A stretch of DNA of 64,000 nt from Ignavibacteriota bacterium (GTDB lineage: Bacteria; Bacteroidota; Ignavibacteria; Palsa-1295): contig CAWBEI010000004.1 in the NCBI GenBank assembly GCA_963787835.1, positions 192,001 through 256,000 of the forward strand, in the 5' to 3' direction. This document shows, piece by piece, positions 13,556 through 62,195 of the stretch (positions are counted from its first letter, which is position 1; the number at the start of each line of letters is the position of its first letter). The notes under the pieces were generated by a model. It searched no databases, was not told the origin of the DNA, and was given only the letters and a program-made list of their open reading frames with translations. A program made the translations under genes and the position numbers.

Positions 13556-14638
13556 ATGAAAAAAATTGCTGTTGGTTGTTTGACGATCTTGCTATGCGCT
13601 GCAGCATCTCTGCATGCGCAATCGAACAATGGAACGGACGTGCGCAGCACGTCCCTACGAACGGAACAACCGATAGGCGTACCACAAAATGTGAGTTTGG
13701 ATGCGAGGGGAACTGATGGTAGTTCAGACCCCTATCTATCGTCTCCACCGACGAGCCCTGGCCCTGTTTGCTCGGATGATGTTGATAGGTCTCACAAGAA
13801 TGGTTCTCACATACAGTCAGAATTGGACACGATTTCGTGCGATACTTGGTATGAAGATGGTGTAACCTTTGTGAGCAATGAAAACTACGAGCTTGGTAAA
13901 GATACGCTTGAAGCTTATGTGGACCATTGCTATGCTTCCGCTTACCCTGCCGTCTTTGCTCAAATAAATAATGCTGTCAGCGGTATTAATCAACAGGTTG
14001 AGTGGCTATCCTTTCGCGATTGGCTTTTCAATGTCTTATATCTCAATCTTGATACTTCCTATTACTGTGAAGATGCAAACGCACTCATTTCTACATTCAA
14101 TTATGTAAATGGCCCTCGCGGTTATGACGGAAAGGGTGAAATGGCTGTGTATCAATATCTCGCTACATCTGGAAAGTGTCCAACTTTTGAGGCGGCATTC
14201 CAAAAGGAAATCACAGCAGGTTGGAATAGTATGTATTCAAAATGGCGGGATACTGTCTCAGATTCGATTCTCACACCTTTCGATAGTACATTGCCAACCC
14301 TCCAACAAATTGGTTTTGAACTATTACTTGGCCCACAATACGCGGCAGTTCATAGAGGAATACTACCATCGAGCGTGTTAGGCAATATCGGTATCTCCCC
14401 TAACCCATTTATTGATAACACTGTAGTTGATTACACACTAAACGTTCCAGCTACTCTTACCGTTGAGGTTTTTAACTCGCTTGGGGAGAGAGTCGCTGCA
14501 CCCGTTCCCTCAGTTTTTACCAACAACGGGGATTATTCGCTGACTGTATCCGGCAGTGCTCTGGCTTCGGGAACGTATTATGTTCGATTTGCAGTGCCAG
14601 AAGGAGAAGTACGAACCATCATGATCACGAAGCAATGA
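13556..14638 (+). CDS. T9SS-secreted protein (Cys-patterned helical domain plus type A sorting domain)
   Basis: Signal peptide ending LHA-Q and CTD SPNPF..EVFNSLGERV..LASGTYYVR. Confidence 0.8.
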   Translation: MKKIAVGCLTILLCAAASLHAQSNNGTDVRSTSLRTEQPIGVPQNVSLDARGTDGSSDPYLSSPPTSPGPVCSDDVDRSHKNGSHIQSELDTISCDTWYEDGVTFVSNENYELGKDTLEAYVDHCYASAYPAVFAQINNAVSGINQQVEWLSFRDWLFNVLYLNLDTSYYCEDANALISTFNYVNGPRGYDGKGEMAVYQYLATSGKCPTFEAAFQKEITAGWNSMYSKWRDTVSDSILTPFDSTLPTLQQIGFELLLGPQYAAVHRGILPSSVLGNIGISPNPFIDNTVVDYTLNVPATLTVEVFNSLGERVAAPVPSVFTNNGDYSLTVSGSALASGTYYVRFAVPEGEVRTIMITKQ

Positions 14639-15609
14639 AAATTCGACATCTTAGTTTAGTATATTCTGCAGTGTTGGTGTTAGAAGCTCTCTTGCTTCTT
14701 ACACCATCGGGCAAAGCATTGGCACAATCAGAAGCGGAGCGCAGACTGGCGCTCCGCTTCGTGCCACACTATTCTTCCCCTTTGAAAACAGACAGCATTT
14801 CGGTGTGTCAATACCAATTGAATGAGGGATCTGCCTATCAGGATAGCTCGGATTTTATGCCTCAAAATATGGTATGGCCTCTGCGATGCTATGATACACT
14901 TCAGAACATGGTGGAACAGTGCACCAGCTTCCCCGACGCATATTATGCTTTTAGTTACATGATCAATGCTGCCGACGCTCTGGATCGCATTACCATGGAT
15001 ACAAGCTGGACATATAATTACCGCTTATGGCTGGAGTCTGTACTTTATACTAATACAGCAGACTCTGAGTATTTTTGTGCGGATGTAAGAACGATCGTAG
15101 CAACCTTTTATGACATAAATCAGAATGTGGCGATCTTGCGGTGGTTAGAACAAAATACGGATTGCGATTCAGAAGGAGTGCGTCAAGAAGACTCAACTTT
15201 ACGCGCCGTCCAACTTGCAAATTGGAAGGAAGGCGATACCACAATTCCTCTCGATACTACACTACCGTCCATGCATGACCTTGGTCTTGATACTGCTTTA
15301 GATAAGCACCTTCTCTCAATGGTAAGTGGTGCACAGCAGTATAGTATTCTTTCAAACGCGACCGCTAATCCCAACCCTATATCTTCGGGAACCGTAATTT
15401 CTTTCAGCATCAGCAAAGAGGCTTATGTAAAGATCGAGCTTTTCGATGTGCTGGGTAAGCAGGCATCCTCTTATGGGTATGAAAGCCTGTTCGAACCGGG
15501 GAATAAATCGGTTTCCTTCTCACTTGCCGGGCTTCCTTCGGGCACTTACTACGCCCGCATCATCACAGCGTACGGCGAAGTGCAAACCGTGAAATTGGTG
15601 AAGGAATAA
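14635..15609 (+). CDS. T9SS-secreted protein, paralog of 13556..14638
   Basis: Signal ending ALA-Q, shared WL..VLY.N.D..Y.C.D and D.TLP motifs, CTD NPNP..LFDVLGKQ..LPSGTYYAR..VKLVKE. Confidence 0.8.
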   Translation: MKIRHLSLVYSAVLVLEALLLLTPSGKALAQSEAERRLALRFVPHYSSPLKTDSISVCQYQLNEGSAYQDSSDFMPQNMVWPLRCYDTLQNMVEQCTSFPDAYYAFSYMINAADALDRITMDTSWTYNYRLWLESVLYTNTADSEYFCADVRTIVATFYDINQNVAILRWLEQNTDCDSEGVRQEDSTLRAVQLANWKEGDTTIPLDTTLPSMHDLGLDTALDKHLLSMVSGAQQYSILSNATANPNPISSGTVISFSISKEAYVKIELFDVLGKQASSYGYESLFEPGNKSVSFSLAGLPSGTYYARIITAYGEVQTVKLVKE

Positions 15610-15621
15610 CTTCTTCGATGG

Positions 15622-15657
15622 CAACACTTTTCTCCTCTGCGGGGGAGGGAAATGTTG
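15622..15657. terminator. Hairpin between convergent genes, possible bidirectional terminator
   Basis: CAACA-CTTTTCTCCTC...GGAGGGAAA-TGTTG imperfect stem between stops at 15609 and 15673. Confidence 0.45.
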
Positions 15658-15672
15658 GCTCTGTGCTCAGTA

Positions 15673-16320
15673 TTATTTCACCAATTCCGGAAAATCTCTT
15701 CGAAATTTCTCAACTTCTGGTTTCGTCACGGCTGCGATATATCCTTGATCGGGGTGGTTGCGGTAATATCGTAGGTGATAATCCTCTGCGCGGTAAAATT
15801 TGGTAAATGGCGCGAGCTGTGTTACGATCGGTGCAGAATATTTCCCTGCGATCTCTTTCATGTAGGCTTCGGCCTCTTGCTTTTGTTCGTCGTTATGATA
15901 GAAGATTGCAGACCGGTACTGCGGTCCTTCGTCTGGGCCAGCACGGTCGGGGGTGGTTGGATCGTGCTCGGCAAAAAATACCTCCAGAAGCTTATGATAA
16001 CTGATCTGTGAGGGATCGTACGCCACATCGACGGATTCGGCATAGCGCGTTTCGCCGGAGCCAACCATTTCATACGAAGGATCGGCTTCTGTTCCACCGC
16101 AATAACCGGGCAGGGCATTCTGCACGCCCTTGATCTCGAGGAAAATTTCCTCAGAATGCCAAAAACATCCCAATGCGAACGTGGCGTGTTGGAGGGTGGA
16201 ATCCTCCTGCTGCACAACGGGTGGTGCAACCTCGCGCTTAGCCGAGCCATTGCATGAGATGACGATGATAACCGTTACCGCCATCGAGGCGGCGAGAAAA
16301 AGCATTCCTTTACGTACCAT
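15673..16320 (-). CDS. msrA: Peptide-methionine (S)-S-oxide reductase, exported/lipoprotein form
   Basis: GCFW active site, GYCGG, QYRSAIF and AEDYH motifs. Likely start MVRKG at 16320 with lipobox VISC. Confidence 0.93.
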   Translation of the reverse strand: MVRKGMLFLAASMAVTVIIVISCNGSAKREVAPPVVQQEDSTLQHATFALGCFWHSEEIFLEIKGVQNALPGYCGGTEADPSYEMVGSGETRYAESVDVAYDPSQISYHKLLEVFFAEHDPTTPDRAGPDEGPQYRSAIFYHNDEQKQEAEAYMKEIAGKYSAPIVTQLAPFTKFYRAEDYHLRYYRNHPDQGYIAAVTKPEVEKFRRDFPELVK

Positions 16321-16368
16321 AGAAATTATGTGACGATATTTTGACCTGCGAGTTTCATTTGTAAATTC

Positions 16369-16519
16369 CATGTCATCCTGAGCGGAGCGAGACGCAGCGG
16401 CAGCGGAGACTCGCGCAGTCGAAGGATCTCTTCAAGTTTGACAACACGGTAAACTGCCGGAGATCCTTCGACTCCGCACATTGTGCTTTCGCACAATATG
16501 CTCCGCTCAGGATGACATG
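16369..16519. repeat. Inverted-repeat element CATGTCATCCTGAGCGGAGC...GCTCCGCTCAGGATGACATG
   Basis: 20-bp perfect terminal inverted repeat plus inner pair AGTCGAAGGATCTC / GAGATCCTTCGACT. Confidence 0.85.
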
Positions 16520-16595
16520 ACTAACAATAGCTCTTTAGGAGATTGAACGCAATGACAATATGCTTGTTTTCATGAGATAAATCGGATTATTACGC

Positions 16596-17342
16596 TTGCA
16601 TTCTCATTCGACCACAGATCTCGTCGGTATCATTCTCGCCGGGGGCACTGGCTCCCGGCTGCATCCCTGCACGACCGTCACGAACAAGCATTTGCTCCCT
16701 ATCGGTGAAATGCCGATGATCTTTTATCCGATCCAAAAGCTTGTTTCTGCTGGAATCGAAGACATTCTCATCGTGACCGGTACCGAGCACATGGGCGATT
16801 TTATCGAGCTTTTGGGTTCCGGGCACGAGTTCGATTGCGCGCTTACGTACCGTGTGCAGGATGAAGCCGGCGGTATTGCTCAGGCATTAGCGCTTGCAGA
16901 GCGCTTCGCCGGGGCACAGCCGATGTGCGTCATGCTGGGAGATAACATATTCGAGAATTCTATCTCGGCGATGATCGAGCAGTTCCAAACGCATCCGAAT
17001 AACGCGCATATTCTTCTGAAGGAAGTTCCAGATGCCGAGCGATTCGGTGTCGCAGAAATGAACGGAACGAAAGTAGTGAGTATTATCGAAAAGCCGGAAA
17101 TTCCGCCATCGAATTTCGCCGTGACGGGCGTCTATTGCTACCCTCCAGACGTGTTCGATATTATCCGTACCCTGACGCCCTCCGAGCGCGGCGAACTTGA
17201 GATCACCGACGTCAATAATGCCTATTTGGCCCAAGGCCGGCTTCATGCCTCGATGCTCGAAGGGTATTGGTCGGATGCCGGAACCTTCCCGTCGCTGGCG
17301 CGCGCGAACGAACTGGTGCGTCAATCCCCGCCGAGGAAGTGA
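16596..17342 (+). CDS. rmlA: Glucose-1-phosphate thymidylyltransferase (short form)
   Basis: GIILAGGTGSRL, LGDNIF, EKP, RGELEITD and WSDAGT motifs. Confidence 0.9.
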   Translation: MHSHSTTDLVGIILAGGTGSRLHPCTTVTNKHLLPIGEMPMIFYPIQKLVSAGIEDILIVTGTEHMGDFIELLGSGHEFDCALTYRVQDEAGGIAQALALAERFAGAQPMCVMLGDNIFENSISAMIEQFQTHPNNAHILLKEVPDAERFGVAEMNGTKVVSIIEKPEIPPSNFAVTGVYCYPPDVFDIIRTLTPSERGELEITDVNNAYLAQGRLHASMLEGYWSDAGTFPSLARANELVRQSPPRK

Positions 17343-17505
17343 ACCAGGATTACGCGGATGGAAGGGGATTACGCGGACGATTCCAGGATTATGAAGAAAC
17401 ACCGAATAAGAAATTAACGACACTAAAAAGAGTATATCCATTGGAGTCCACAACAATCCTTAAAATCGTCCGCGTAATCCGGCTAAATCCGCGAAATCCC
17501 GGTTC
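17341..17505. repeat. Long-armed inverted-repeat element built from GGATTACGC-like 9-mers
   Basis: About 50-bp arms GAACCAGGATTACGCGGAT..GGATTACGCGGACGATT and AATCGTCCGCGTAATCC..ATCCGCGAAATCCCGGTTC. Confidence 0.85.
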
Positions 17506-17511
17506 TGAATT

Positions 17512-18507
17512 ATGAATCTTCTTATAACCGGTGGCGCCGGATTCATCGGGGCAAATTTTGCCCACTATGCCGTTCGACATGGGCATACTGTGCTCATCTA
17601 TGATGTCCTGACCTACGCTGGGAACCCGAAAAATGTTGGACATCTGAAGCATTTTGTTCGAGGCGATATTCGGGATGCCGCTGCGCTTGACCGGGTGTTC
17701 CGTGATGGCGTGGATGGCAAACCATTCGATGCAGTAATCAATTTTGCGGCGGAAAGCCATGTCGATCGGTCTATTTCGCTGGCCATGCCATTTGTAGAAA
17801 CGAATGTAGTGGGTGCTGTAACGTTACTCGAAGCAGCGCGGCGCCACAATGTTCCAACATTCATCCAGATCTCTACCGATGAAGTCTATGGGTCGATCGA
17901 AGGCACTGGGAAGTTTATGAGTTCTTCTCCGCTTCGGCCATCGAGCGCGTACTCCGCATCGAAGGCGTCTGCCGATCTGATGCTCCTCTCGTATCATCAT
18001 ACGCATGGCATGGATGTGCGTATCACCCGCTGCACCAATAATTACGGACGCTTTCAGCATCCGGAAAAATTCATTCCCACCATTATTTCCAACGCGCTTG
18101 CTGGCAAGCCTATCCCCATCTTCGGCGATGGAAAACAAGTGCGCGATTGGATCTTTGTCGAAGATCATTGCACTGGAATTTTTGCGACATTGGAGCGAGG
18201 CAAGCCGGGCGAGATATATCACTTCGGCGGTCCAGGTATAGAATCGAATGATGCTGGAATTTCAAATTTCGAACTCGTGCATCTCGTTTTCCGAATTCTT
18301 GCGGAAAAATCAGGCCGCGATATTTCTGAATTCACACCGCTCATCAGAAATGTTGCAGATCGCCCCGGCCACGATCGCCGCTACGCGCTCGATTGGTCGG
18401 AATCAACACTCGAACTCGGCTGGAGTCCCCAAACCAGGCTTAAAGATGGGTTAGTGAATACAATAACATGGTGGCTTGCCAACCAAGATTGGTGGAACGG
18501 CGTTTAG
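17512..18507 (+). CDS. rmlB: dTDP-glucose 4,6-dehydratase
   Basis: TGGAGFIG, AAESHVDRS, STDEVYG, YSASK and DRPGHDRRY motifs. Confidence 0.95.
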   Translation: MNLLITGGAGFIGANFAHYAVRHGHTVLIYDVLTYAGNPKNVGHLKHFVRGDIRDAAALDRVFRDGVDGKPFDAVINFAAESHVDRSISLAMPFVETNVVGAVTLLEAARRHNVPTFIQISTDEVYGSIEGTGKFMSSSPLRPSSAYSASKASADLMLLSYHHTHGMDVRITRCTNNYGRFQHPEKFIPTIISNALAGKPIPIFGDGKQVRDWIFVEDHCTGIFATLERGKPGEIYHFGGPGIESNDAGISNFELVHLVFRILAEKSGRDISEFTPLIRNVADRPGHDRRYALDWSESTLELGWSPQTRLKDGLVNTITWWLANQDWWNGV

Positions 18508-18514
18508 CATCATA

Positions 18515-19345
18515 GTGAAAAAAATTCTACTTCTTGGCAAAGGCCAGATCGGCTCCGCGCTTATGCGGGACTTGAAAAATTTCGAAGTCCATTTATGGCC
18601 GCACGATATTGATGACCTTACGCGAGATGAACTCGAAGTCATCGCGCCAGACGCCATCATCAATGCTGCTGGCAAAACCGATCTTGCATGGTGCGAGGCA
18701 AACGCGCGCGAAGCTATGCGCTCGAATCTTGAAGCGCCGGTTCGTCTTTATCAACGGATACTCGGAAGCAACCGTGATATTCGCTTCATCCATTTTTCCA
18801 GTGGGTGTGTGTGGGATGGCCCGTACGATTCGGATGGGAAGCCGTTCACTCCCGATGTTGCCCCTACGCCTGCGTGCCTGTATTCCTGGACGAAAGCCGC
18901 CGCTGACGCGATGTTGCTCGATCTGGGTCGGGAACGAATAGCAATTTTGCGACCACGACAGGTGTATTCCGGCTACGAGCATCCGCGCAACTCGCTGATC
19001 AAATTAATGAGATACCCGAAACTGATCGATACCCCAAATTCGGTGAGCAGCATTGCGGTAATTGAGAAGAGTGTTCGGCATGTTATAGACACAGAGGATT
19101 GGAGTGGCATCTGGAATGTGTACGATCGCGGCATCACGACACCGCTCGAGATCGGCGAAATGCTCTGGAAAGCCGGACTTCGCGAACAACCATTTCGCAT
19201 TTCGAAAGAGGAGCTTGACGTATTTCACAAGCCGAAACGGGTCGATACCGTGTTGTTCGATCAGCGTTTCGAAACGCACATTCAGCCGGAAGATGTTAAT
19301 TCTCAATTATCGAAAGCGATTGACGAATTAAAAAATACTTCCTAA
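18515..19345 (+). CDS. rmlD: RmlD-like sugar nucleotide reductase (SDR)
   Basis: GTG start, GKGQIG, INAAG.T..WCE and YSWTK motifs; lies after rmlAB. Confidence 0.65.
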   Translation: MKKILLLGKGQIGSALMRDLKNFEVHLWPHDIDDLTRDELEVIAPDAIINAAGKTDLAWCEANAREAMRSNLEAPVRLYQRILGSNRDIRFIHFSSGCVWDGPYDSDGKPFTPDVAPTPACLYSWTKAAADAMLLDLGRERIAILRPRQVYSGYEHPRNSLIKLMRYPKLIDTPNSVSSIAVIEKSVRHVIDTEDWSGIWNVYDRGITTPLEIGEMLWKAGLREQPFRISKEELDVFHKPKRVDTVLFDQRFETHIQPEDVNSQLSKAIDELKNTS

Positions 19346-19350
19346 ATCCC

Positions 19351-21201: not shown

Positions 21202-21218
21202 TTTTTTAATAAGCTCCC

Positions 21219-23282: not shown

Positions 23283-23285
23283 CTG

Positions 23286-24287
23286 CTACATCCAACGCGT
23301 CAGCCACGGGCCGGTGACGTGTGCATCTTCTTCGCTTACGGGTCGTTCCCGTTCGGCGAGTACATCATGCAGACCGACCTGCCTGCTGCGTGCGCCCCAT
23401 TCTGCCCAATTCGGTGTGTAATTCGCATCGCGGGCCGTTCGCATCAGAATGGGTTCTTTGATTCCTTCCATGCCACTGACTTCGCCGGGACGCTGCCAGC
23501 GCAGGTCGATCGACCAGCGAATGATATCGGAATAATTCTCCGTCGAGCGATGAGGAACGAGATTATTTAGCAGCAGCACCGACCCTTTGTTCATCGTGCA
23601 TGTAACTATTTCGCCTTCCGGCAGATCCTGCTCGTCGATATAAAGATACCACGAGTCCTTGCGGCCACGAGTGTTTTCGAGTTTGTGCCTGTAAACTACT
23701 CCCCCTCCTATGGAGCGGAGCGGAATAGGAGGGGGAAGCGCATGACCGATCATGCGCTGGGGGGTGGTTCCCCTATTCACGCGGATAACCTGCATACATC
23801 CATTCACCTCATTCGCATCGACAAGTGGTATCCAAGCGGTGGGCTGGAACGTATGTTGCGAACCAGCCGCGAGATACGCCGTATCCTGATGCCATGGAAC
23901 CGTCGCAAGCGGATTATGCGGCGTTTTCGAGCGTAAATTCCACACCGGATGCCCCGCGATCTCCGGCCCAAGAATTTGCTCGATGATGTCCAGCAATTTT
24001 TTGCTCGACCAAATATCGGAGAATGCTTTTGGCAGGATTCCTCCGGTGTGGATCAGCGTAGCAGCACCGGGGAATGCCTGCTCCAGTTTTGTGAGGCGTG
24101 TTAGAAATCCCTCGTTCTCGAATTTATCGTTTATCTTTTCACTCGCACACAACCGTTCTGCCAGGGCATCAACTTTCTCGTTGATTGCGTCTATTACCGG
24201 CTGAAGTTCCGCATCCGAAAAGAGATCGCGCACAATGAGGAAACCATCGGTGCGGTATTGTTGAAGTTGTGCAGAAGAGAGGCTCAT
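23286..24287 (-). CDS. Phytanoyl-CoA dioxygenase (PhyH) family Fe/2OG oxygenase with an in-frame palindromic insert
   Basis: Y..DGFL, WHQD, W.PL.DA...NGCM, HRS and RWSIDLR motifs; about 24 extra residues encoded at 23699-23770. Confidence 0.85.
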   Translation of the reverse strand: MSLSSAQLQQYRTDGFLIVRDLFSDAELQPVIDAINEKVDALAERLCASEKINDKFENEGFLTRLTKLEQAFPGAATLIHTGGILPKAFSDIWSSKKLLDIIEQILGPEIAGHPVWNLRSKTPHNPLATVPWHQDTAYLAAGSQHTFQPTAWIPLVDANEVNGCMQVIRVNRGTTPQRMIGHALPPPIPLRSIGGGVVYRHKLENTRGRKDSWYLYIDEQDLPEGEIVTCTMNKGSVLLLNNLVPHRSTENYSDIIRWSIDLRWQRPGEVSGMEGIKEPILMRTARDANYTPNWAEWGARSRQVGLHDVLAERERPVSEEDAHVTGPWLTRWM

Positions 24288-24296
24288 ATTAATTCG

Positions 24297-24989: not shown

Positions 24990-25126
24990 GGTATTTTTAT
25001 GGATGATGTGGAAAATAAAGGAGTTGTGGTGAACTTTAGTTCGTTGTTAAAAGGACTGTTCCTTGCCGAACCAGCATGGGTGCGGTATGGTTAGATTTGG
25101 CAACATACATTTCGCCAATATCCGCA

Positions 25127-37182: not shown

Positions 37183-38143
37183 TTAATCGAGTACGCGCTC
37201 CATTACCGTGATCCTTGTCTGTTTTTTTAACGACTCGATCATAATTTTTGCCCCAAAAGGTAGGGTCCACATTCGGCTCTCATGACCAAAAGGAAGGTTC
37301 GATAAAACCGGAATTCGTAGTTTCGAGAAGTAATCAGAAAAGACCTCGCTCAAGGTTGCAGTTGGCGCATCCGCATCCGTGTTACAATTAGTGAATCGGC
37401 CGAGCAAAATAGCCTTTGCATTATCAAAGGCTCCGGCAAGGCGGAGCTGAGCTGAAATGCGCATCGATCTTGCGGGGCTTTTCGTCGATCTCCTCGAAAA
37501 AAGGAATGGTTCCCTTGAAAGATAGCTGATACGGGGTGCCACGTAAACTTGAAAAAACAGTAAGATTTCCGCCGATGATTCTACCATGCACATCAAACGA
37601 AGTATGTCTATTCAAGAACACACCTTCGTTCGTTACGAGTGGTAGTTCGTCCAATGGTTTTGTGCTTGTCATCGCTCGCCAGAAATTCTCTTCTGTAAAG
37701 GGGTCGATGTTGTTCCACAAATCCACACCTGGCATGGGGCCGAAAAAACAGGAGGCTAATCTGGCCTTCTTATAGATAGCTGCAAACAGCGCGGTGGCAT
37801 CGGAATAACCGACGATGATCTTGGGGTGCTTGCGTATGAGATCATAGTCGAGCTTGTCCAGCAGCCGAATAGATCCGTATCCCCCACGATGGTAAAATAT
37901 TGCTCGAATGTGTTTGGATCGAAACATCGCGTGGATGTCCGCAACGCGATCTTTATCGGACGCAGCAAGATAGGTCTGCTTATCGATTCCATCCCGCAAA
38001 TGCTTGCCAAGTTCAACACGATACCCGAGCGATTCGAAATATTTAACCGACAACGCGATACGTTCCTCCGAACGAGGCGGACTTGCGGGAGCGATTATAC
38101 CGATCACGTCCCCTGGGCGAAGCGCTTTTGCTTTGAGTTGCAC
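37183..38143 (-). pseudogene. ldcA: LD-carboxypeptidase (S66) with a single-base frameshift at about 37453
   Basis: RGGYGS, GYSD and GGNL..FFEE lie in one frame and LPFGH in another. Removing one base gives KIDAHFAQLRLAG. Confidence 0.85.
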
Positions 38144-44678: not shown

Positions 44679-44767
44679 GCATCGTCAACTATGCAGGCAT
44701 CGTCAGCGATGCAGGCATCGTCAGCGATGCAGGCATCGTCAGCGATGCGTGCATCATCAAAGATGCA
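44679..44767. repeat. Five tandem 18-bp palindromic units GCATCG-TCAG-CGATGC-AG
   Basis: Units start at 44679, 44697, 44715, 44733 and 44751. The last unit abuts the tRNA CCA. Confidence 0.9.
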
Positions 44768-44854
44768 TGGTGCCCGAGGCGGGACTCGAACCCGCACAGC
44801 CTCACGACTACTGCGTTCTGAGCACAGCGTGTCTACCAATTCCACCACCCAGGC
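44768..44854 (-). tRNA. tRNA-Leu (CAG)
   Basis: GCCTGGG/CTCGGGC acceptor, GGAATTGGTAGAC D-arm, CTGTG-CTCAGAA-CGCAG anticodon arm, long variable arm, encoded CCA. Confidence 0.95.
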
Positions 44855-45959: not shown

Positions 45960-46155
45960 TCTGAACCAGGATGACGCGGATCAGGACGGATGACGCGGAT
46001 GAGTTAATAGAAATATTCACGTATCGTTTAACAAATACGGGCTCCTTTCGTCCCGCGCCCGCCTCAAAATATATTGCAATGTCAATCCCGCTTTTGCGGG
46101 AATGACACGAAACCATCCGCGTCATCCGACTTAATCCGCGTAATCCAGGTTCAGA
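45960..46155. repeat. Long-armed inverted-repeat element of the 17341 family with a nested hairpin
   Basis: TCTGAACCAGGATGACGCGGAT..GGATGACGCGGATG pairs with CATCCGCGTCATCC..ATCCGCGTAATCCAGGTTCAGA. The loop contains TGTCAATCCCGCTTTTGCGGGAATGACA. Confidence 0.88.
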
Positions 46156-47424
46156 CTAATGCATCAACTCGATCGGCAGCGTCTCCATCTTACCATTCAT
46201 CCGGACAAGGCTCTGGTATGTCCCATCGGGTAATCCTGTAGGATTACCCCACATGAAGCTGTGCTCTCCCGCACCAATCTCGCCCGAAAACAGCCGCGCA
46301 ACCTCCACGCCAAGCATATTCACAATGGATACTTCCGCATACCCGGCAGCTTGCGAGGTGAAGGTGATTTGGGTGGATTGGGAGAAGGGGTTGGGGAAGA
46401 CGTGAAATTCACCTTCGAATGGTGAATTTCCCGCAACGCTTTCTTTCTGCAGATTCATTTCCGAAAGCGGACGTCGCCATATTCCACTATCGGTTCCAGC
46501 AAGCAGGAATGACCCATAGACTTCAAGAGACTCGACCCACGTCTTGCCTGGAATGCCGGAATTGACGGATGCCCAGCTTTGTCCGGTATCAATGGTTAGA
46601 AAAATTCCACCGGTGTCATCACTGACAAATAAATTTGAGTCTTTCGCGGCAAACCCATTCAGTCCAGTATTATATGGAACTGTAATTGTTGTCGGTGACC
46701 AGGTATTGCCACTATCAGTCGACATTCTTATGCCTCCTTCAATAGTGCCAGCAAAAAGATCGGCGCCATATGTGAAAAGGGTATTGATGGATTCTGCACC
46801 CTGTTCTGGGCCTTGCCAAGTTGCCCCGTCATCCATTGACCGAAATATACCATATCCGCCAGGGCCTTCAAAAAGTATGGTGCCAAGCAGAGTGAGAGAA
46901 GTGACAAATCTAGCGTAATGAGACAATCCCGTATCTCGGGCATTCCAACTTATACCACCATTAGTAGAAAAATAAACACCCCCGTCTTGTCCATAGAGGC
47001 CATTGGCATTAACGCCCGCAAAAATAAACGTTCCATCTACTGCGAATGCATCAACAATGGCAGAATCAGGTAAACCAATGTTGGCGCCTTTCCAGCTTTT
47101 CCCACTATCGGTAGAGAGAAGAATTCCATGCCACCACGTTCCAGCGAAGATATTCTTACCACTAACTTTCAATGCGACGACTAGCGTCGTATCTGTTATA
47201 CCTAAATTTAATGGTGCCCAATTTTGCCCACTATCAGTTGAAACGAAAATTCCTCCAGATGGCCAACCGTCAGATGCAAATAAGTAAGGACCAAGTGCGG
47301 AAAAGGCAGTAAACGTTTCTTGGTGTGGAGCATTCATTTGTTTCCACTGCGCATGCAGCCCACACGCAGGCATCACCGCGAGCGTGGCGAAGAGGGTGAG
47401 TGCGAGAAGTCGTTTCAGGAACAT
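46156..47424 (-). CDS. T9SS-secreted BNR/Asp-box beta-propeller protein
   Basis: Signal ending LHA-QW, repeated S.D.G..W boxes, CTD FPNPF..VNMLGVEVA. Confidence 0.85.
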   Translation of the reverse strand: MFLKRLLALTLFATLAVMPACGLHAQWKQMNAPHQETFTAFSALGPYLFASDGWPSGGIFVSTDSGQNWAPLNLGITDTTLVVALKVSGKNIFAGTWWHGILLSTDSGKSWKGANIGLPDSAIVDAFAVDGTFIFAGVNANGLYGQDGGVYFSTNGGISWNARDTGLSHYARFVTSLTLLGTILFEGPGGYGIFRSMDDGATWQGPEQGAESINTLFTYGADLFAGTIEGGIRMSTDSGNTWSPTTITVPYNTGLNGFAAKDSNLFVSDDTGGIFLTIDTGQSWASVNSGIPGKTWVESLEVYGSFLLAGTDSGIWRRPLSEMNLQKESVAGNSPFEGEFHVFPNPFSQSTQITFTSQAAGYAEVSIVNMLGVEVARLFSGEIGAGEHSFMWGNPTGLPDGTYQSLVRMNGKMETLPIELMH

Positions 47425-47526
47425 GGTTTTATGCTGCCCTGAAAAGTATTGCACGGCGCAAATAGTGCCCAATGTCTGAACTGGGATTTATGGGATGCAT
47501 GGGATTATTTGGATGCGATGCAAACG

Positions 47527-51639: not shown

Positions 51640-51655
51640 TCTAAAATATGGGAAA

Positions 51656-51877: not shown

Positions 51878-51920
51878 AAAACGTTCAACCGGATAGGACA
51901 AACACGGGTTCCACCTTGCT

Positions 51921-52691: not shown

Positions 52692-52803
52692 AGTGGATAG
52701 TTAAAAAGTGGAGAGTGGATAGTGATTCATTCTTGCTTGATGTAGATTTAATTGAGAGCGATTTACTGCCCCATTTTCCACTATCCACTGTCAACTATCC
52801 ACT
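52692..52803. repeat. Heptamer-repeat (AGTGGAT) inverted element
   Basis: AGTGGATAGTTAAAAAGTGGAGAGTGGATAGTG pairs with CCATTTTCCACTATCCACTGTCAACTATCCACT. Confidence 0.85.
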
Positions 52804-53057
52804 GACTTCGCTACTTCTTCCTCAATGGCCTCGCGCAGGGCCGGGCGGATAAAGTTATTCCCAAGCCCATATTCATTCAGGCCGAGTGCGAGGGTCCGAA
52901 TTTTCTTCGGCACCGTGAACCGGCGGTTAATAACAAGTAATTTCTCTTCGCGCAGCAGGCAATAGCCACCGCCGAAATTTCCATTCTCGAAACGGAGCTT
53001 AATGCCAAGCTCGCTCGCGAGGCCCTTTAATTCTTCAAATAATTCTTCGTGAGTCAT
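52791..53057 (-). CDS. Conserved hypothetical protein
   Basis: ELK.LA.ELGI.LRFE.GNF.GG.C.L pattern; lies in a co-oriented run. Confidence 0.7.
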   Translation of the reverse strand: MTHEELFEELKGLASELGIKLRFENGNFGGGYCLLREEKLLVINRRFTVPKKIRTLALGLNEYGLGNNFIRPALREAIEEEVAKSVDS

Positions 53058-53158
53058 GTAGTAATAATGCAACCGAACCACAGCAACAGAAAAAGCAATG
53101 GATTTAGTTGAGATGGTGAACAGGATTCATTTGTATAAGATGGACATTTCTATCTGCA

Positions 53159-53602
53159 ATGATACATTACACGGAAGTTACTGAGGAAGATGTCTCCGAA
53201 TGGGTATCCCTCGCACTCGCGCTATGGCCCTACGAAACCCAGGCGGATATGCGGGCGCTGTTCCTCAAACGGCTTCCATTATCCAAAGAAAAGAGCATTC
53301 TCTGTAGAGATGAAAAGGGCGAACCGGTTGCATTTATCGATCTTTCGATTCGGGAGGAATATGTCGAAGGCAGTAATTCCAGCCCCGTCGGTTATGTGGA
53401 GGGAATTTATGTGAAGCCGGAGTATAGGATGAAGGGGGTCGCGAGAGAGTTGCTTCGATTAGGCGAGGAATGGTCTCGCTTGAATGGGTGTGCAGAGTTT
53501 GGATCAGATACCGAGTTGGAAAATGTCGAAAGCCAGGCGTTCCATCTGAGAGCTGGCTTTGAGGAGGCCCAGAAGATCGTACACTTCATCAAGAAGCTGT
53601 AG
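53159..53602 (+). CDS. aac(6')-I: Aminoglycoside 6'-N-acetyltransferase-like GNAT
   Basis: ALWP, SIREEYVEGSNSSPVGYVEGIYV and EFGSDTELENVESQAFH are AAC(6')-I signatures. Confidence 0.8.
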   Translation: MIHYTEVTEEDVSEWVSLALALWPYETQADMRALFLKRLPLSKEKSILCRDEKGEPVAFIDLSIREEYVEGSNSSPVGYVEGIYVKPEYRMKGVARELLRLGEEWSRLNGCAEFGSDTELENVESQAFHLRAGFEEAQKIVHFIKKL

Positions 53603-53849
53603 CATGTTCCCCGAGTGCGCGCTCGATGATCGCGATCACTTCCGATTGCATAAATCCACGCGGACGAAACCGCGAGCGCGCAAGATGAACGGCTTCTTCG
53701 AGCGTACTGACCTCGCCGCGCAGGTAGAGCCACACATGGTAGCCAAGCCGGTTTCTATCGTTCTCTTCGACAACGGGAACGTTCGCTACGGCAGCATACG
53801 CCTTTTGAGCCAGTTCCGTATCATGCGCTTTGGAGATATGAAGGGACAT
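53589..53849 (-). CDS. Hypothetical protein
   Basis: 86-aa ORF starting 5 nt after the M1 peptidase stop. Confidence 0.55.
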   Translation of the reverse strand: MSLHISKAHDTELAQKAYAAVANVPVVEENDRNRLGYHVWLYLRGEVSTLEEAVHLARSRFRPRGFMQSEVIAIIERALGEHATAS

Positions 53850-53853
53850 CTAT

Positions 53854-55836: not shown

Positions 55837-55875
55837 GAAGCCGTACCGAGAAGTGGCATCGAGAAGTTCTCATAT

Positions 55876-57144
55876 TTGAAAATGCCGGAAACGACCGAAA
55901 TTCAGCCGAAATCGCTAGCCATTCGCACTATTCCGAATGGGGCAGAGGTGCGTCTGCCGCGCAGCCAGACCACGCCTCTTCCTGACCACATTATCGCTGC
56001 AAGCGAGGAAATGCGGGAGATCGTCTCCGTCGTTCGGGCGATTGCGCCGACGGCCATCACGGTTCTCCTGATCGGCGAAAGTGGGACGGGTAAGGAAGTA
56101 TTTGCCGAACTCATCCACGATCTGAGCGAGCGAAAAGGGCCATTTGTCACTGTTAATTGTGGCGCGATACCGGAGGGACTGATCGAGTCCGAATTATTCG
56201 GACATGAAAAAGGATCGTTCACCGGGGCGGTCGGTCAGCGCAAAGGATTTTTCGAAGCCGCGCAGGATGGCACGCTATTCTTGGATGAGATCGGTGACAT
56301 GCCCTTGCAATTGCAGGTAAAGCTTTTGCGTGCGATAGAAACGGGAACATTTACCCGTGTCGGTTCAACGACTCAGCAAAAGACGAACGCTCGCATTATT
56401 GCTGCTACGAATCGCGATCTTGAGATTGATGTACGCGCCGGTACCTTCCGGGCCGATCTCTATTACCGGTTGCGAGCCGTGATGCTTCGCATTCCGCCGT
56501 TACGCAACCGGCGCGAAGATATTCCGTTCCTTATCGAGACGATGCTCGAAGAGTTCGTCCACAAGCATCATATTGTTGGGCCGGATGGCAAGCCCCGTAT
56601 GCCACAGTTGATGCCGGATGCTACTCAGGCGCTGATCGATCACGAATGGCGGGGGAATATTCGGGAATTAAAAAATACGCTGGAACAGCTCGTCGTCCTG
56701 GTGTGCGCGGTGCAGCAAAATGATGGTCGTTGCATTATTTCCGCGCGCGATGTTGAGCGCTCGCTTGCATCGAGCGCGAATGGATGGGACGGCCAGCGGT
56801 TCGAGCGAACGCTGCCCGCGCCGGCGGTACCACGCGAAAATCCGCAGACGGAACGGGAGCTTATTTACCGCGCATTGCTCGAACTTCGCAGCGATATTGC
56901 CGAGATCAAGAACATCCTTCATGAGCGTGGCACGAACCCACCTCCAACGAATACGCTGGCGCTTCCTGCATCCTCTGCTGGGAGTGCGGAGCCAATTCGT
57001 TCGTTAGACGATCTCGAAACCGAAGCCATTCAGCACGCACTTAATTTTTATCATGGCAACCGCCGCCACGCCGCGAAAGCCCTCGGCATCAGCGAACGAT
57101 CGCTGTACCGAAAACTGAAGGAGAAAGGACTTGAGCAAGTATGA
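55876..57144 (+). CDS. Sigma-54-interacting transcriptional regulator (no receiver domain)
   Basis: GESGTGKE, ESELFGHEKGSFTGA, FLDEIG, FRADLYYRL, WRGNIREL and a C-terminal HTH. Confidence 0.93.
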   Translation: MKMPETTEIQPKSLAIRTIPNGAEVRLPRSQTTPLPDHIIAASEEMREIVSVVRAIAPTAITVLLIGESGTGKEVFAELIHDLSERKGPFVTVNCGAIPEGLIESELFGHEKGSFTGAVGQRKGFFEAAQDGTLFLDEIGDMPLQLQVKLLRAIETGTFTRVGSTTQQKTNARIIAATNRDLEIDVRAGTFRADLYYRLRAVMLRIPPLRNRREDIPFLIETMLEEFVHKHHIVGPDGKPRMPQLMPDATQALIDHEWRGNIRELKNTLEQLVVLVCAVQQNDGRCIISARDVERSLASSANGWDGQRFERTLPAPAVPRENPQTERELIYRALLELRSDIAEIKNILHERGTNPPPTNTLALPASSAGSAEPIRSLDDLETEAIQHALNFYHGNRRHAAKALGISERSLYRKLKEKGLEQV

Positions 57145-57255
57145 GGTATGAAGTATGAAGTATGAAAGGGGAAATGTTTTTCGTCGTGTGATGGAGGGCG
57201 GAGTAATTTATTTTTCTCTTCTTTTTATACTTCATACTTCATACTTCATACTTGC
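57135..57255. repeat. Heptamer-repeat (ATGAAGT) inverted element overlapping two genes
   Basis: GCAAGTATGAGGTATGAAGTATGAAGTATGAAAG pairs with TTTTTATACTTCATACTTCATACTTCATACTTGC. Confidence 0.88.
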
Positions 57256-57712
57256 AACAGGATGTTATTCCTTCACCGGCGCCAGCATCCCGCCGCATAT
57301 TCATACCATTGGCATTCCGCTGGTCGAGGATAATTCCGGGTTCGGACAATCGGCGGTGCATCAGGACCTGACGGATCAGCTTACGCAGAAATTCACCAGC
57401 GAGGGTTCGCTGCGCGTGGGAAGTGTTTCGTCTTCGGATGCCAAGATCGAAGCATCCATCCCGGCTTCCGGTATCGATGACGAGCCTGTAAGCGTCAAAG
57501 CCGGTGAGATCGTAACCACAAAGCAGATCACGCTAAAAGTTCACGCCATCTACACCGACCAGAAAAAGCAAAAAGTGTTTTGGGAACGCGATTTCGCCGA
57601 AACTGCTCCCTATGCCATCTCCGGCGGGCTCTCTGCCCAACATACCGCCCTTTCCCAGGCCGAAGATAAAGTTACCAGCGATATTCTGATCGCCGTTATT
57701 TCGAATTGGTAA
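57155..57712 (+). CDS. lptE: LPS assembly lipoprotein LptE family protein
   Basis: GC-YSFTGASIP.HI.TI.IP N-terminus and W..DF; C-terminal ..NW. Follows a sigma-54 regulator. Start uncertain (57155 or 57191). Confidence 0.8.
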   Translation: MKYERGNVFRRVMEGGVIYFSLLFILHTSYFILATGCYSFTGASIPPHIHTIGIPLVEDNSGFGQSAVHQDLTDQLTQKFTSEGSLRVGSVSSSDAKIEASIPASGIDDEPVSVKAGEIVTTKQITLKVHAIYTDQKKQKVFWERDFAETAPYAISGGLSAQHTALSQAEDKVTSDILIAVISNW

Positions 57713-57716
57713 AACC

Positions 57717-59810
57717 CTATTTTAACAGGGATATCGCTGTTCGCTGAACATTTCCATTCTCGCGGACGACGCACTCATACATTCCCGGCGCGGCACCGCT
57801 GGCATCCCAGGTGAAGGAATGCTCGCCAGCCGATAACTCACCCTCGTAAACACGCGCAACCTCCGCGCCAAGGAGATTGACGATGGTAACTTCTGCCGCG
57901 CCGCTTTCCGAGCAGGAAAATGTTATTGTTGAAGAGGAACTGCAGGGATTGGGGTAGGCTGATATTGATAGCTGCATAGAGGCCGTCGGGGTTACAGCAC
58001 TGGTGTTTATCATTTGGGATAGAGGACGGCTCCAGACGCCGCTAATTTCTGTTCCAGCGAAAAGATCTGTGTCCTGAATTGCGAAGGTATTAACAATATC
58101 AGTCAGACCATCACCAACTGATGTCCAACTCATCCCGTTGTTTGTAGAAAGATAAACACCAAATCCCGAATTCATGCCGCTTGTAGAAGCAAAAATATTC
58201 TCGCCACGTACGAAAAGAGCACTAATGGAAAGTCTTTCATCTGGTAAGCCAGTGCTAGACGAAGCCCAGGTATTTCCACTATTTGTGGAGACAATAATAC
58301 CATTGCCATAGGTGCCAGCAAAAATGTAATTCCCGCTTACCACCAAAGCCGCGATATCATAGTTGCCAGCATTAAGGGAATTCCAACTTGAACCGCTGTC
58401 GGTTGAGAGAAAGACCCCAGAATAAGTGCCAGCGAAAAGGCTCGTTCCGCTCTCTGCAAGAGTATTAATGTAAAAGGAATAACCCGTTAGCCCAATATTA
58501 CTAGCAACCCATTCGTTGCCATTATTGGACGATTTATAAATGCCATTGCCATAAGAACCGGCAAAAAGCATTGTTCCTATTGTTGAAACGGCTCGGATCA
58601 CTACATTTGAAGGAAATCCGTTATTGATAGCATTCCAAGTTGAACCACTGTCTATTGATTGATAAACTCCCCCCGAACTTCCAGACGCCAAAAGGTTTTC
58701 GGGGCTTCCCGCAAAGTTAAAAACTATAGCATCGGTCAAGACGCTGTTCCAAAGAGTTCCATTATTTGTCGATAGATAGATGCCACCATCGGACAAATTT
58801 CCATCCAAGAGGTTTGAGCCCACTGGATATAGTGCGGCAACTGGAAAGCCTGTAAGAGCCTTATTCTTCGCAATCCAACTCATGCCATCATTTGTAGAAA
58901 GAAAAACCCCGTCAATAGTTCCGGCGAAAATATTTGAATCCTCTACAAGGAGTGAAACCACAGCGTCAGTAAGGCCATTGTTGTGCAGCGTCCATGTCTT
59001 TCCACTATCGTTAGATAGATATATTCCGGTATCAGTACCAACTAAAAGAGTGGTTCCACTGGTTGCGAGACAATATGCAGGTCTTCCAAATCCCGTTTGA
59101 GTCCAGCTTCCACCATTGTTCGTCGAAATAAAAACACCTGTGCTCGTGCCAGCAAAAAAATTCGAACCATTGACTTCAAGTGTTATTACATAAAGCCCAT
59201 ACCCCGTCAAGCCATTAGATGCGAGTGTCCAACTTGTACCCTGATTCGTTGATTCATAAATTCCCCCACCTAACGTCCCAGCAAAAATGTTCGTACCGAC
59301 AACCTTAAGGGTATAAATATTAAGGCCTGCGCCATCAATACCGCTATCGATAGCAATCCAGTTTGCTCCACTGTTGGTTGAAAGGTAAATCCCGCTATCA
59401 CCTGTGCCTGCAAAAAGATTTGAGCCGCTTACTGCAAAACAAGTTATATCAGTCGTGGGAGAATTGGCATTAGGAAGGCCCGTGCTCTCTGAATTCCAAC
59501 TCATTCCACTATCCGAAGAAATATAGACACCATAATAACCTCCTTTGTAGAGATTTGATCCACTCGAATAGAGCGAAAAAATTGGGAAATTTCCTTCTAA
59601 GGGATTTCCTGTTTGTTCCCAGGTTGCGCCATTATTGGACGAGGTAAAAACGCATCCTCCATAAGTCCCGGCAAAGATATCGGATCCGATTGCAGCGAGC
59701 CCAGAAATATACCCTCCTAATGGCCCGTTTGTTGGCGTCCACTGGGCATGCACATCAGTGCCAAAGCTGAGTAAACCAATGATAATACCAAGGAAAAAAT
59801 ATTGACGCAT
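57717..59810 (-). CDS. T9SS-secreted BNR/Asp-box double beta-propeller protein
   Basis: Start MRQYFF at 59810, signal ending VHA-QW, many FAGT..G...STN.G..W repeats, CTD YPNP..VNLLGAEVA. Confidence 0.87.
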   Translation of the reverse strand: MRQYFFLGIIIGLLSFGTDVHAQWTPTNGPLGGYISGLAAIGSDIFAGTYGGCVFTSSNNGATWEQTGNPLEGNFPIFSLYSSGSNLYKGGYYGVYISSDSGMSWNSESTGLPNANSPTTDITCFAVSGSNLFAGTGDSGIYLSTNSGANWIAIDSGIDGAGLNIYTLKVVGTNIFAGTLGGGIYESTNQGTSWTLASNGLTGYGLYVITLEVNGSNFFAGTSTGVFISTNNGGSWTQTGFGRPAYCLATSGTTLLVGTDTGIYLSNDSGKTWTLHNNGLTDAVVSLLVEDSNIFAGTIDGVFLSTNDGMSWIAKNKALTGFPVAALYPVGSNLLDGNLSDGGIYLSTNNGTLWNSVLTDAIVFNFAGSPENLLASGSSGGVYQSIDSGSTWNAINNGFPSNVVIRAVSTIGTMLFAGSYGNGIYKSSNNGNEWVASNIGLTGYSFYINTLAESGTSLFAGTYSGVFLSTDSGSSWNSLNAGNYDIAALVVSGNYIFAGTYGNGIIVSTNSGNTWASSSTGLPDERLSISALFVRGENIFASTSGMNSGFGVYLSTNNGMSWTSVGDGLTDIVNTFAIQDTDLFAGTEISGVWSRPLSQMINTSAVTPTASMQLSISAYPNPCSSSSTITFSCSESGAAEVTIVNLLGAEVARVYEGELSAGEHSFTWDASGAAPGMYECVVRENGNVQRTAISLLK

Positions 59811-59997
59811 AGAAGGGATCAATTTAATTAATGACAATTCATCATATTTCCTAAATACTAAAATACGAAAGAATTGCTTGGCTATTTCAAAAACCAAACT
59901 ATGGGTAGCCAATGAGATAAATGTGAACCGGTATTTGCCGAATATTACTCGACGAACTCGGGGTCATGGCAGCGGAAAACATTAACGCCGGATGGAA

Positions 59998-60402
59998 TTA
60001 ACCTAAACCCATAACCAACAGTCCAGGAACGCGATTGAAGTCCCGCTCATTCAAGGTAACTATTGCGTGTCCGTTACGAATGCAGGATGCGGCGATCCAC
60101 AAATCGTGTAACCCAATGATCTCACCTCTCGTCAGTAGGTCTGCCCATATCACGGCGTGGACGCGGGCCGTTTCCTCATCGATGGGAACGATGGGATATC
60201 GTGCAATGATCGGAGTGAGGAATCGGATTCGCTCTTGCCGGTATTTAGCGGTTGTTGCTCGCTCAACGCCATGCAATAATTCACTGAGCGTAATGACGGA
60301 GAGTAAGCATTCCGAGTTTGCATACTCACGCAACGTTTCGTGAAGCGGCAATCCATTACGCTCGGCGTGGATAATGACGCCGGAATCAATTATGAAGCCC
60401 AC
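59998..60402 (-). CDS. vapC: VapC-type PIN domain toxin
   Basis: IIDSGV, ITLSEL..G, HDLWIAA and VTLNERDF.RVPGL motifs. Confidence 0.88.
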   Translation of the reverse strand: MGFIIDSGVIIHAERNGLPLHETLREYANSECLLSVITLSELLHGVERATTAKYRQERIRFLTPIIARYPIVPIDEETARVHAVIWADLLTRGEIIGLHDLWIAASCIRNGHAIVTLNERDFNRVPGLLVMGLG

Positions 60403-60668
60403 GGGTCGCGGATGGTTTGAGCGTTAGCCAGTCGGCGTAATTCTGCCACATCTTTCGCGAATGCCTCGGCATTTTCAGAGGAAAGATGCGGAAGCGATTC
60501 AAAAAAATCGGAGAGTTCGCCAACGCGTATGCCAGATTTCGGCGCCGGTTGCACCTCGTCTGCGGAAGTGATAGAGATTCGGATCGTCTCATGGGCGAAG
60601 AGCGCCTTGATCTTATCGACCAGCGGCGACCCGAGTTCATCCGAATTTAGTTGAAAGATTGCTTCCAT
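60390..60668 (-). CDS. Putative antitoxin
   Basis: Small ORF overlapping the vapC start, ending RDPWAS. Confidence 0.7.
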   Translation of the reverse strand: MEAIFQLNSDELGSPLVDKIKALFAHETIRISITSADEVQPAPKSGIRVGELSDFFESLPHLSSENAEAFAKDVAELRRLANAQTIRDPWAS

Positions 60669-60998
60669 GTATTCCCTAACGGCAAGGCTGAGATAACAGT
60701 TGCCAGAATAATATCCGGATTTCAAGCGCGGGGGAAAATAATGACGTAGATTAGTGTTTGCTTTGATGGGCACCTGTATCAATTTTCAATTAAGAATTGA
60801 GAATTAAGAATGGGGGCTGCGATCGTTCATTGAAAATTGCGATGGGTTTCGATATGAACGAGTTCTTTGTGAAAGGGAATTTTTAATAACTTTTACAACA
60901 AATGGCGAAATTAGCTCAAATTCGAGGGTGGTCGGGAACTCAACAAGAAAAAAAATGGCACCTATTTCTTTGGGCAAGTGAGCACCATTTTCCAGTAG

Positions 60999-62195
60999 CT
61001 AATGAGTACCTTGTTTCTCATACCGCTCCACAAACTCGGGGTCGCGGCGGCGGAGATTTTCGTGATCTACTTTGCCGGAGCGGGTCATGAGCTTGTAGGC
61101 AAAGGGGAGCGGGTCGAGGTGCATGTAGTCCTTGAGGTTTTCGAACATGAGCAGGCTTTCCATGGCTGCTTCCTGGTATTCGTCCACCACGGGCCGGCGC
61201 CGCGCTTCGAATTCGATGAGGGCATCGGGAAGTTTATCGGTTGTTTGGAGCGCGTGGAATAAGGCGATCGAATCCTCCAGCGCAAGCTTGGTTCCCGAAC
61301 CGATCGAGAAATGGACGGTGGCGAGGGAATCGCCAAGCAATGTAGCGCAAACTTCAGTTTGCGATCGGGCGTAAGGGTCGCGAACTGAAGTTCGCGCAAC
61401 ATTTTGCGCCACGCACCACCAATGCCGGTTACGAACGAAGGTAAAATTCAGCCATTTGGAATTATTCGAGAGCAAGGGTTCACCCTGAAGATCGAGATGA
61501 AACACTTGTTCGAGATAGTGACGAGCAGAGTCATCATCCATATCTTCGAAACCTGCGGATTCCCATGTTTCGGGATCGCACTCGACGATGAAGGTGCTGG
61601 TATTTTTATCGAATTTGTACGCATGAGCAGCAAACACTCCGGCGCTATTCTCTCGGAAGATGAGAGTCAGCCCATGGAACAAATGCCGTGTACCGAACCA
61701 GATATATTTATTGCTTCGCGTGGAAAGATCGGGCTTGAACTGCTCCTGGAACTCGGAACGAACTCCGCTGGCAACGCCATCGGCGCCAACAACGAGATCG
61801 TATCCACCGCCGCGCACCAGGGATTCTATATGATTCACAGGCAAACGAAAATGAAGATTTACTCCAAGCTCGCCGCATCGATCCTGAAGAACTTTCAGCA
61901 TTTCGATGCGCGCGATGCCGGAAAATTTATTTCCACGCACGGTGATCTTTTCATCGCGATAAATAATATCGACGTTCTCCCAGCGTTCGAAGCGGTCGAT
62001 AATTCCTTGCCACGATGGGACGTCCTCCGCTTCGAGATAACTGAGCGTTTTATCCGAGAACACGACGCCCCAGCCGAAGGTATCGGTTGGTGCGTTGCGC
62101 TCGAAGAGGTCGATGTGGACTTCGGGACGCCATTTTTTTACGAGGAGCGAAAAATACAAACCCGCCGGTCCGCCGCCGATAACTGCGATCTTCAT
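60999..62195 (-). CDS. FAD-dependent monooxygenase (stand-alone salicylyl-CoA 5-hydroxylase N-terminal type) with in-frame REP insert
   Basis: GGGPAGL, TFGWGVVFS, GADG, AHAY.F..STFIVEC and GD....HFSIGSGTKLALED motifs. Confidence 0.88.
   Translation of the reverse strand: MKIAVIGGGPAGLYFSLLVKKWRPEVHIDLFERNAPTDTFGWGVVFSDKTLSYLEAEDVPSWQGIIDRFERWENVDIIYRDEKITVRGNKFSGIARIEMLKVLQDRCGELGVNLHFRLPVNHIESLVRGGGYDLVVGADGVASGVRSEFQEQFKPDLSTRSNKYIWFGTRHLFHGLTLIFRENSAGVFAAHAYKFDKNTSTFIVECDPETWESAGFEDMDDDSARHYLEQVFHLDLQGEPLLSNNSKWLNFTFVRNRHWWCVAQNVARTSVRDPYARSQTEVCATLLGDSLATVHFSIGSGTKLALEDSIALFHALQTTDKLPDALIEFEARRRPVVDEYQEAAMESLLMFENLKDYMHLDPLPFAYKLMTRSGKVDHENLRRRDPEFVERYEKQGTH
61339..61403. repeat. GTAG-type REP doublet (REPIN) inside the monooxygenase gene
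   Basis: GTAG-CGCAAACT-TC-AGTTTGCG and the inverted copy CGCGAACT-GA-AGTTCGCG-CAAC. Confidence 0.88.

Follow-up and report, generated by a model that had tools for sequence, protein, structure and literature searches.

Unrelated small palindromic repeats lie in frame in conserved genes of an Ignavibacteriota bacterium and differ between sister species

We analysed a 64,000-nucleotide stretch of the Ignavibacteriota bacterium assembly GCA_963787835.1 (contig CAWBEI010000004.1, positions 192,001 to 256,000; G000:C4:192001-256000, hereafter the window), in which a reading made from the sequence alone had pointed to five DNA hairpins translated in frame inside open genes and to two near-identical intergenic copies. 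The genome of this stretch (G000; 3.57 Mb, 97.9% complete, 3.4% contamination), here treated as Kapabacteria-like, finds its best read matches in soil metagenomes, and an Rfam scan of the 64-kb window returned two tRNAs and nothing else. All five hairpins and both intergenic copies lie where the sequence-only reading placed them, all five are inside open frames, and each folds better than 200 of 200 of its own shuffles (z of −3.5 to −7.8). Three of the hairpins represent multi-copy families, here called A, C and E, which, together with a genome-wide comparison, bear out the claim that several unrelated families enter coding sequence in frame. The principal features, including members of the GTAG-tagged repetitive extragenic palindromic (REP) class, are as follows.

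13556..14638, plus strand: secreted protein with a C-terminal domain like those of the type IX secretion system (weak PF18962 match, below cut-off), host of family A.
13628..13660, minus strand: family A, a GTAG-type REP, in frame just after the signal peptide of the secreted protein; 37 copies.
13472..13504, minus strand: intergenic family A copy, 91% identical to 13628-13659.
23286..24287, minus strand: PhyH-family dioxygenase (PF05721), host of insert C.
23699..23770, minus strand: composite insert of a family C G/C-run hairpin and a nested 21-nt mini-hairpin, net gain 21 residues by orthologue comparison.
23740..23755, plus strand: mini-hairpin core of 16 nt (6-bp stem, 4-nt loop); 102 perfect-stem copies in G000.
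1735..1750 (within 1733-1752), plus strand: free intergenic mini-hairpin copy.
44679..44768, no strand assigned: tandem array of five 18-nt mini-hairpin units, directly beside the tRNA gene at 44771-44854.
60999..62195, minus strand: monooxygenase dependent on flavin adenine dinucleotide, like VioD and salicylyl-CoA 5-hydroxylase (PDB 3c4a, E 1e-52), host of insert E.
61339..61403, minus strand: family E, an inverted pair of GTAG-type REPs (a REPIN) at about residues 264-285 of the monooxygenase; 41-43 copies genome-wide.

The description of all five hairpins as mobile elements held for 13628, 23699 and 61339 (37–45 copies each) and failed on copy number for the two at 14721 and 46228. Counted as copies within called genes, with genes in both G000 and its sister genome G001 taken from a simple in-house caller, family A has 9 of 37 copies in genes, family C 29 of 45 and family E 15 of 41 (17 of 43 when unmerged); the control, the reversed genome, gave 0 matches for each. 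Family E has the marks of a GTAG REP, being a short GTAG-ended palindrome that is multi-copy and absent from the control, and 61339-61403 and several further copies form inverted doublets. Family C lacks the GTAG or CGTC tag and the REP-associated tyrosine transposase (RAYT) that define the class; it is instead a G/C-run hairpin flanking a DUF559 gene, and it works like a REP without being classed as one.

Alignment with orthologues, which the sequence-only reading had proposed as a check, found inserts C and E missing from part of the orthologous loci. The monooxygenase, whose G001 orthologue matches NF006101, was compared at 14 loci of the genus and at 6 loci of other genera. The short form of the insert E site occurs at all 6 loci of other genera and at 3 of the 14 genus loci; the other 11 carry 4–21 extra residues, which are family E in G000, G006, G002 and G005 and other sequences elsewhere. 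A second loop of the same enzyme is empty in G000 and holds another hairpin family in G006, G005, G002 and G014. The G014 monooxygenase (L010, G014:C25) breaks right at this second-site hairpin, either through a frame-breaking insert or through a G/C-run assembly error.

The PhyH host was compared at 10 loci. Its site is empty in 5, carries the family C hairpin without the mini-hairpin in G006 and the family C hairpin with the nested 21-nt hairpin in G000, and in G014 holds an unrelated hairpin at the same place. Family A, for its part, occurs in three of five paralogues that share the leader of the 13556-14638 protein and is absent from two. Upstream of that gene, window positions 13086-13313 form a gene-less inverted pair of the family that flanks IS200-like Y1 transposases, and this pair heads a module duplicated in front of the secreted-protein paralogues.

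In the AlphaFold model of the monooxygenase (mean predicted local distance difference test score, 82.7), residues 263-279 score below 50, and insert E is predicted to form a disordered loop. The repeat-coded residues 280-286 are modelled as a strand before the GD motif, and the repeat has therefore overwritten native residues there; hairpin E is 65 nt long against a net gain of 60 nt. These lengths bear on the proposal, raised in the sequence-only reading, that the hairpins are taken out of the RNA or passed over by the ribosome, leaving the proteins without the peptides. The hairpins are stable and translation through them is something we infer, both of which leave skipping some room. Clean removal of the 65-nt hairpin E would, however, shift the frame and delete the strand, the 3′ end of the hairpin standing in for native strand residues, and the frame is kept at nearly all sites, which skipping would not need. 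For these reasons we regard skipping as very unlikely.

The same sites could be read as inserts kept by selection for a function such as mRNA structure, translational pausing or new peptide surfaces, with shared sites as regulatory positions. The hairpins are nearly perfect in several hosts, the same monooxygenase loops are filled at 11 of 14 genus loci, and repeat-coded residues form the predicted strand before the GD motif. Yet length, family, strand and frame vary freely between species, many inserts have decayed, and outgroups and some genus members do without them, and we think it unlikely that selection for function explains the inserts.

To place these hosts in the wider genome, G000 was compared with the first 2.8 of the 3.58 Mb (78%) of G001. 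Among internal segments longer in G000, 30 of 262 match at least three intergenic copies, against 1 of 786 controls; for segments longer in G001 the figures are 14 of 273 and 0 of 819. A direct scan of 1408 aligned orthologues found 44 sites with a repeat in G000, spread over 38 genes, and 32 of these sites show a net gain of at least 3 residues; in G001 it found 24 such sites, in 23 genes. At five sites the two genomes coincide, each time with different families, where 0.12 are expected under uniform placement, a null that is lenient, tolerant loops being a small part of a protein. Orthologues of 40 hosts, assigned by an NCBIfam scan, include murB, dxs, coaBC, mnmE, nusB, xseA and ribE; hutH, purD, lon, rimO, ribD, yidC and dnaX are further hosts.

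These host genes are under purifying selection. Identity between G000 and G001 is 74.8% for hosts and 73.8% for non-hosts, and dN/dS (the ratio of nonsynonymous to synonymous substitution rates) lies at 0.06–0.12 in six of seven pairs for the two window genes, one pair being saturated (0.06–0.07 for the PhyH gene, 0.08–0.12 for the monooxygenase). The pseudogene-like decay that the sequence-only reading had named as a sign against itself is thus not what we found. The idea that the inserts are assembly or binning artefacts, or mark decaying pseudogenes, draws on the contamination estimate and on 40 frame-changing breaks among 1618 matched loci; one of the 40 falls at a repeat, and the majority have the look of one-base assembly errors. 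Insert E is spanned with 0 differences by the short-read DNA contigs X1 and X3 (possibly derived from the source sample), independently assembled genomes share inserts, which already largely refutes an artefact, and the hosts are conserved. We find this explanation barely credible.

Families differ in how often they occur in genes: copies in genes make up 24–64% for A, C, E and two other families, but only 6 of the 195 copies of three CGTC-type families. We considered and rejected stop codons as the only filter of entry into genes, since their content accounts for only part of this. One further host, a gene at G000:C2:835836-837116 whose G001 orthologue matches an HK97 major capsid model, carries two repeat inserts among housekeeping neighbours and could be a prophage relic or a domesticated shell.

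Candidate movers lie beside several of the repeats. Among open reading frames (ORFs) bracketed by copies of one family are two RAYTs above the NF047646 cut-off, one of them flanked by family E: copies at C2:1501589 and 1502350 enclose the RAYT at C2:1501702-1502052 (84 bits, cut-off 80). Family C flanks a DUF559 nuclease gene (C2:1483396), a CGTC-type family flanks a GIY-YIG gene, and IS200-like Y1 transposases also occur among the ORFs bracketed by one repeat family. The small proteins in such ORFs we take to be GxxExxY and four-helix-bundle proteins. From this arrangement, family E may be moved by the RAYT and family C by the DUF559 nuclease that each flanks. A literature search found no paper linking DUF559 to such repeats, most subscription papers lying outside the searched set. 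No RAYT occurs among the ORFs bracketed by family A copies, a RAYT-like gene at C6:115190 being outside that comparison. Inverted pairs of a further family of 47 copies stand in the window at 17341-17505 and 45960-46155, and its other copies bracket ORFs that are presumably GxxExxY-like.

Besides these nuclease genes and the re-use of loops by different families, the sequence-only reading missed a separate 16-base hairpin nested in 23699-23770: the part of that insert matching 1733-1752 is this mini-hairpin, an element distinct from family C. G000 has 102 perfect-stem copies, 29 of them within called genes, and the 2.8 Mb of G001 has 77, against 0 in two controls; the two sides of the stem change in step, and the variants are not the same from species to species. 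Disregarding pairing, the pattern has 38–222 matches in 13 of the 14 genus relatives, 46 in G017, and 0–20 in the other 25 family and class genomes, with 11 in G010; a narrower pattern is found 40 times in G000 and no more than once in any of 250 phylum genomes. Copies lie inside other repeat families, where they often replace the GAA loop of a host hairpin, and also in genes and in tandem arrays. A clean 21-nt mini-hairpin gain in ribE is filled in 2 of 7 genomes and empty in 5, and different inserts occupy several loops across the seven. Set against empty copies of the host repeats, mini-hairpins bring a net gain of 13–21 nt, mostly 15–18, with ragged junctions, lengths that are approximate because they compare paralogous copies and not the same locus. 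Sixteen of 26 such gains are not multiples of 3 (the table had 27 rows, one dropped for aligning to another filled copy), whereas of the 40 frame-changing breaks in matched genes a single one falls at a repeat.

Such hairpins could instead arise in situ, template switching or repair perfecting local quasi-palindromes round a favoured motif, an over-represented sequence like the highly iterated palindrome HIP1. The ragged junctions and net gains of 13 to 21 nt would fit, the stem is often prolonged by the bases beside it, and some copies fall on native-looking peptides and bring no length gain. On the other side stand the same 16-nt core as a net gain in unrelated contexts, the covarying and species-specific stems, and the 102 copies against 0 in controls; the ribE filled and empty pair points, at species level, to core bases that could not be templated from the empty allele. 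An in-situ origin therefore seems rather unlikely to us. As for a mover, G000, at 97.9% completeness, has no match to PF00078 (RVT_1) that would provide a reverse transcriptase, and the gene lists of both genomes, inspected by eye, show no evident mover gene beside the dense mini-hairpin cluster near rimO.

These dense clusters around rimO lie at G000:C2:1630000-1648000 and G001:C1:2029000-2037000; their stem variants and positions differ, pointing to hopping over short distances or to a bias of the region. In G001 (G001:C1:1-2800000) only 7 of about 80 mini-hairpins fall in the first 1.0 Mb, whereas they are common between 1.0 and 2.8 Mb, on either side of a dnaA-like gene at 1836538, and contig C2 of G000 combines a dnaA-like gene at 1019337 with the highest repeat density; enrichment near the origin is possible. 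The strand preference of the mini-hairpin flips weakly between replichores in G000 C2 and not at all in G001, and the idea of such a bias was dropped. Dispersed elements of similar size have reportedly been described in Nostocaceae by Elhai et al. in 2008: small dispersed repeats (SDRs) of about 20 nt, said to form tandem copies and to enter another repeat precisely, their mover not known.

The families are multi-copy, orthologous sites are found empty, the hosts are intact, and different families stand at the same site. We consider it highly probable that unrelated small palindromic families sit in frame in this genus's conserved genes and vary between sister species, having likely been copied in as selfish DNA by nucleases acting in trans, likely kept where the frame and a tolerant loop allow, and likely translated, the filled loops being slots that a separate 16-nt hairpin also enters. 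Nucleases acting in trans would copy their own hairpin families to new places, as the flanking and REPIN-RAYT biology (PMC3116915) suggest. Copies that break a needed gene would be purged, and in-frame copies in a tolerant loop would persist, likely being translated as floppy loops rich in proline, glycine and serine. A loop with a hairpin would then be almost neutral DNA, open to entry by further repeats, the mini-hairpin among them, and would become a slot that can be refilled, extended or overwritten. The mini-hairpin (net about +15 to +21 nt) lands in genes, next to other copies of itself and within other repeats; what moves it is most probably templated repair at nicks made in hairpins. 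Tentatively, and as a possibility we do not favour strongly, it could be an independent mobile unit, close to the smallest size that mobile DNA can have and lacking its own enzyme, parasitising the nicks of unrelated hairpin-cutting nucleases (RAYT, IS200-like, DUF559, GIY-YIG); with those families it might make loops of essential enzymes refillable slots, perhaps even supplying a structural strand, and the genus could serve as a natural insertion-scanning experiment on its own proteome.

Several points weigh against this account of copying in trans and retention in tolerant loops, beginning with the lenient placement null and the approximate junction lengths given above. Repeat flanking of nuclease genes is an association only; no enzyme is tied to family A among the repeat-flanked ORFs of G000, and none to the mini-hairpin. 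Twelve of the 44 G000 sites bring no net gain in length, and at one G001 site the match to the mini-hairpin pattern is a chance one, in a conserved native peptide. One CGTC-type family has 4-5 open frames yet only 1 of 47 copies in genes. The host counts depend on the simple gene caller. RNA run X5 and the low-share read runs gave no cover of insert E and say nothing on expression or habitat.

The novelty attached to coding-sequence entry by the sequence-only reading was overstated: REPs occur inside ORFs of many species, dimers code for 20-30 amino acids in known proteins, and repeat-specific RAYT genes or REPtrons accompany them (Di Nocera et al. 2013, PMC3733652), while 3 of 10 families of Rickettsia palindromic elements (RPEs), of about 150 bp, enter ORFs (PMC10969869). 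The present repeats resemble the intragenic GTAG/CGTC REPs and REPtrons of Di Nocera et al. in their GTAG-tagged palindromes, in-ORF dimers and several families per genome (PMC3733652). Unlike those, they come from a new lineage, include non-GTAG families in genes (DUF559-flanking G/C-run hairpins, heptamer arrays and the mini-hairpin), and have their site re-use by unrelated families counted; that source gives one same-site case, REPs at about the same place of recB in two species of Xanthomonas (PMC3733652). Family E shares with the REPIN-RAYT system (Bertels and Rainey 2011, PMC3116915) the form of an inverted REP doublet and the flanking of a RAYT, here one above the NF047646 cut-off, whereas in this genome 15-17 of 41-43 copies lie in called genes.

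With RPEs (PMC10969869) they share palindromic repeats in frame in unrelated, intact housekeeping genes, absence from orthologues and more than one family. Unlike RPEs, which encode a conserved peptide, they measure 15-70 bp, are read in several frames and on both strands, and belong to a free-living soil bacterium with candidate nucleases in its genome. SDRs are repeats of about 20 nt, of which SDR5 inserts in HIP1, none being reported outside Nostocaceae among HIP1-rich cyanobacteria (PMC4390886, PMC5861425, PMC2884548). The mini-hairpin is like them by description, as a dispersed repeat of about 20 nt with a conserved structure, filled and empty sites, tandem copies and entry into other repeats. 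Unlike them it belongs to another phylum, has a 16-nt core and ragged junctions, and targets the loops of several REP-like families and genes, not HIP1. A literature search found no account of palindromic repeats in Kapabacteria, with most subscription papers outside the searched set.

The basic phenomenon is thus already published and the lineage is new; what merits further work is the counted loop re-use and the 16-nt element. The filled and empty alleles seen in this genus suggest that very small selfish repeats steadily supply the core enzymes of a free-living bacterium with new peptide loops. The repeat sites also map where host enzymes tolerate insertions. Family E with its RAYT and family C with its DUF559 nuclease offer named enzyme–repeat pairs for testing, and the mini-hairpin is an SDR-like hairpin outside cyanobacteria.

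Three further hairpin features of the window stand apart from families A, C and E.

14721..14765, plus strand: strong hairpin that follows the signal peptide encoded by gene 14635-15609; the genome has 2 copies, which both belong to one duplicated gene.
46228..46249, no strand assigned: perfect 9-bp hairpin in a loop of a C-terminal domain; single copy, no net insertion.
57135..57255, plus strand: multi-copy inverted arrays of a heptamer, which overlap the start of LptE and encode part of the h-region of its signal peptide.

The 14721 hairpin was rejected as a member of a dispersed family on its two copies in one duplicated gene; it has no exact copy in 24 relatives, with one match at 3 mismatches. 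The 46228 hairpin was likewise rejected, being single-copy, adding no length over paralogous C-terminal domains (which read WSKPTGLPDG) and having a size reachable by chance, since 3 of 10 shuffles of the window held a perfect 9-bp stem of this kind. Chance may account for it, or it may be a relic, for which paired variants in 3 of 24 relatives leave some room. Its loop (window 46156-47472 and paralogues) reads KNACAT or KNVCAT in several paralogues, like GTAG-type repeat ends, and two paralogues of 46156-47472 carry the mini-hairpin peptide DRSS further on, marking another possible slot. The LptE heptamer pair folds with a z of −10.8; its heptamer-coded h-region is common to the G001 orthologue, with no empty site seen, and is therefore older. 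Two inverted, roughly 75% alike copies of a structured intergenic element of about 300 nt, with many copies genome-wide, lie at window 12688-12991 and 60737-60988, and an LD-carboxypeptidase (S66) gene at 37183-38143 appears split over two frames.

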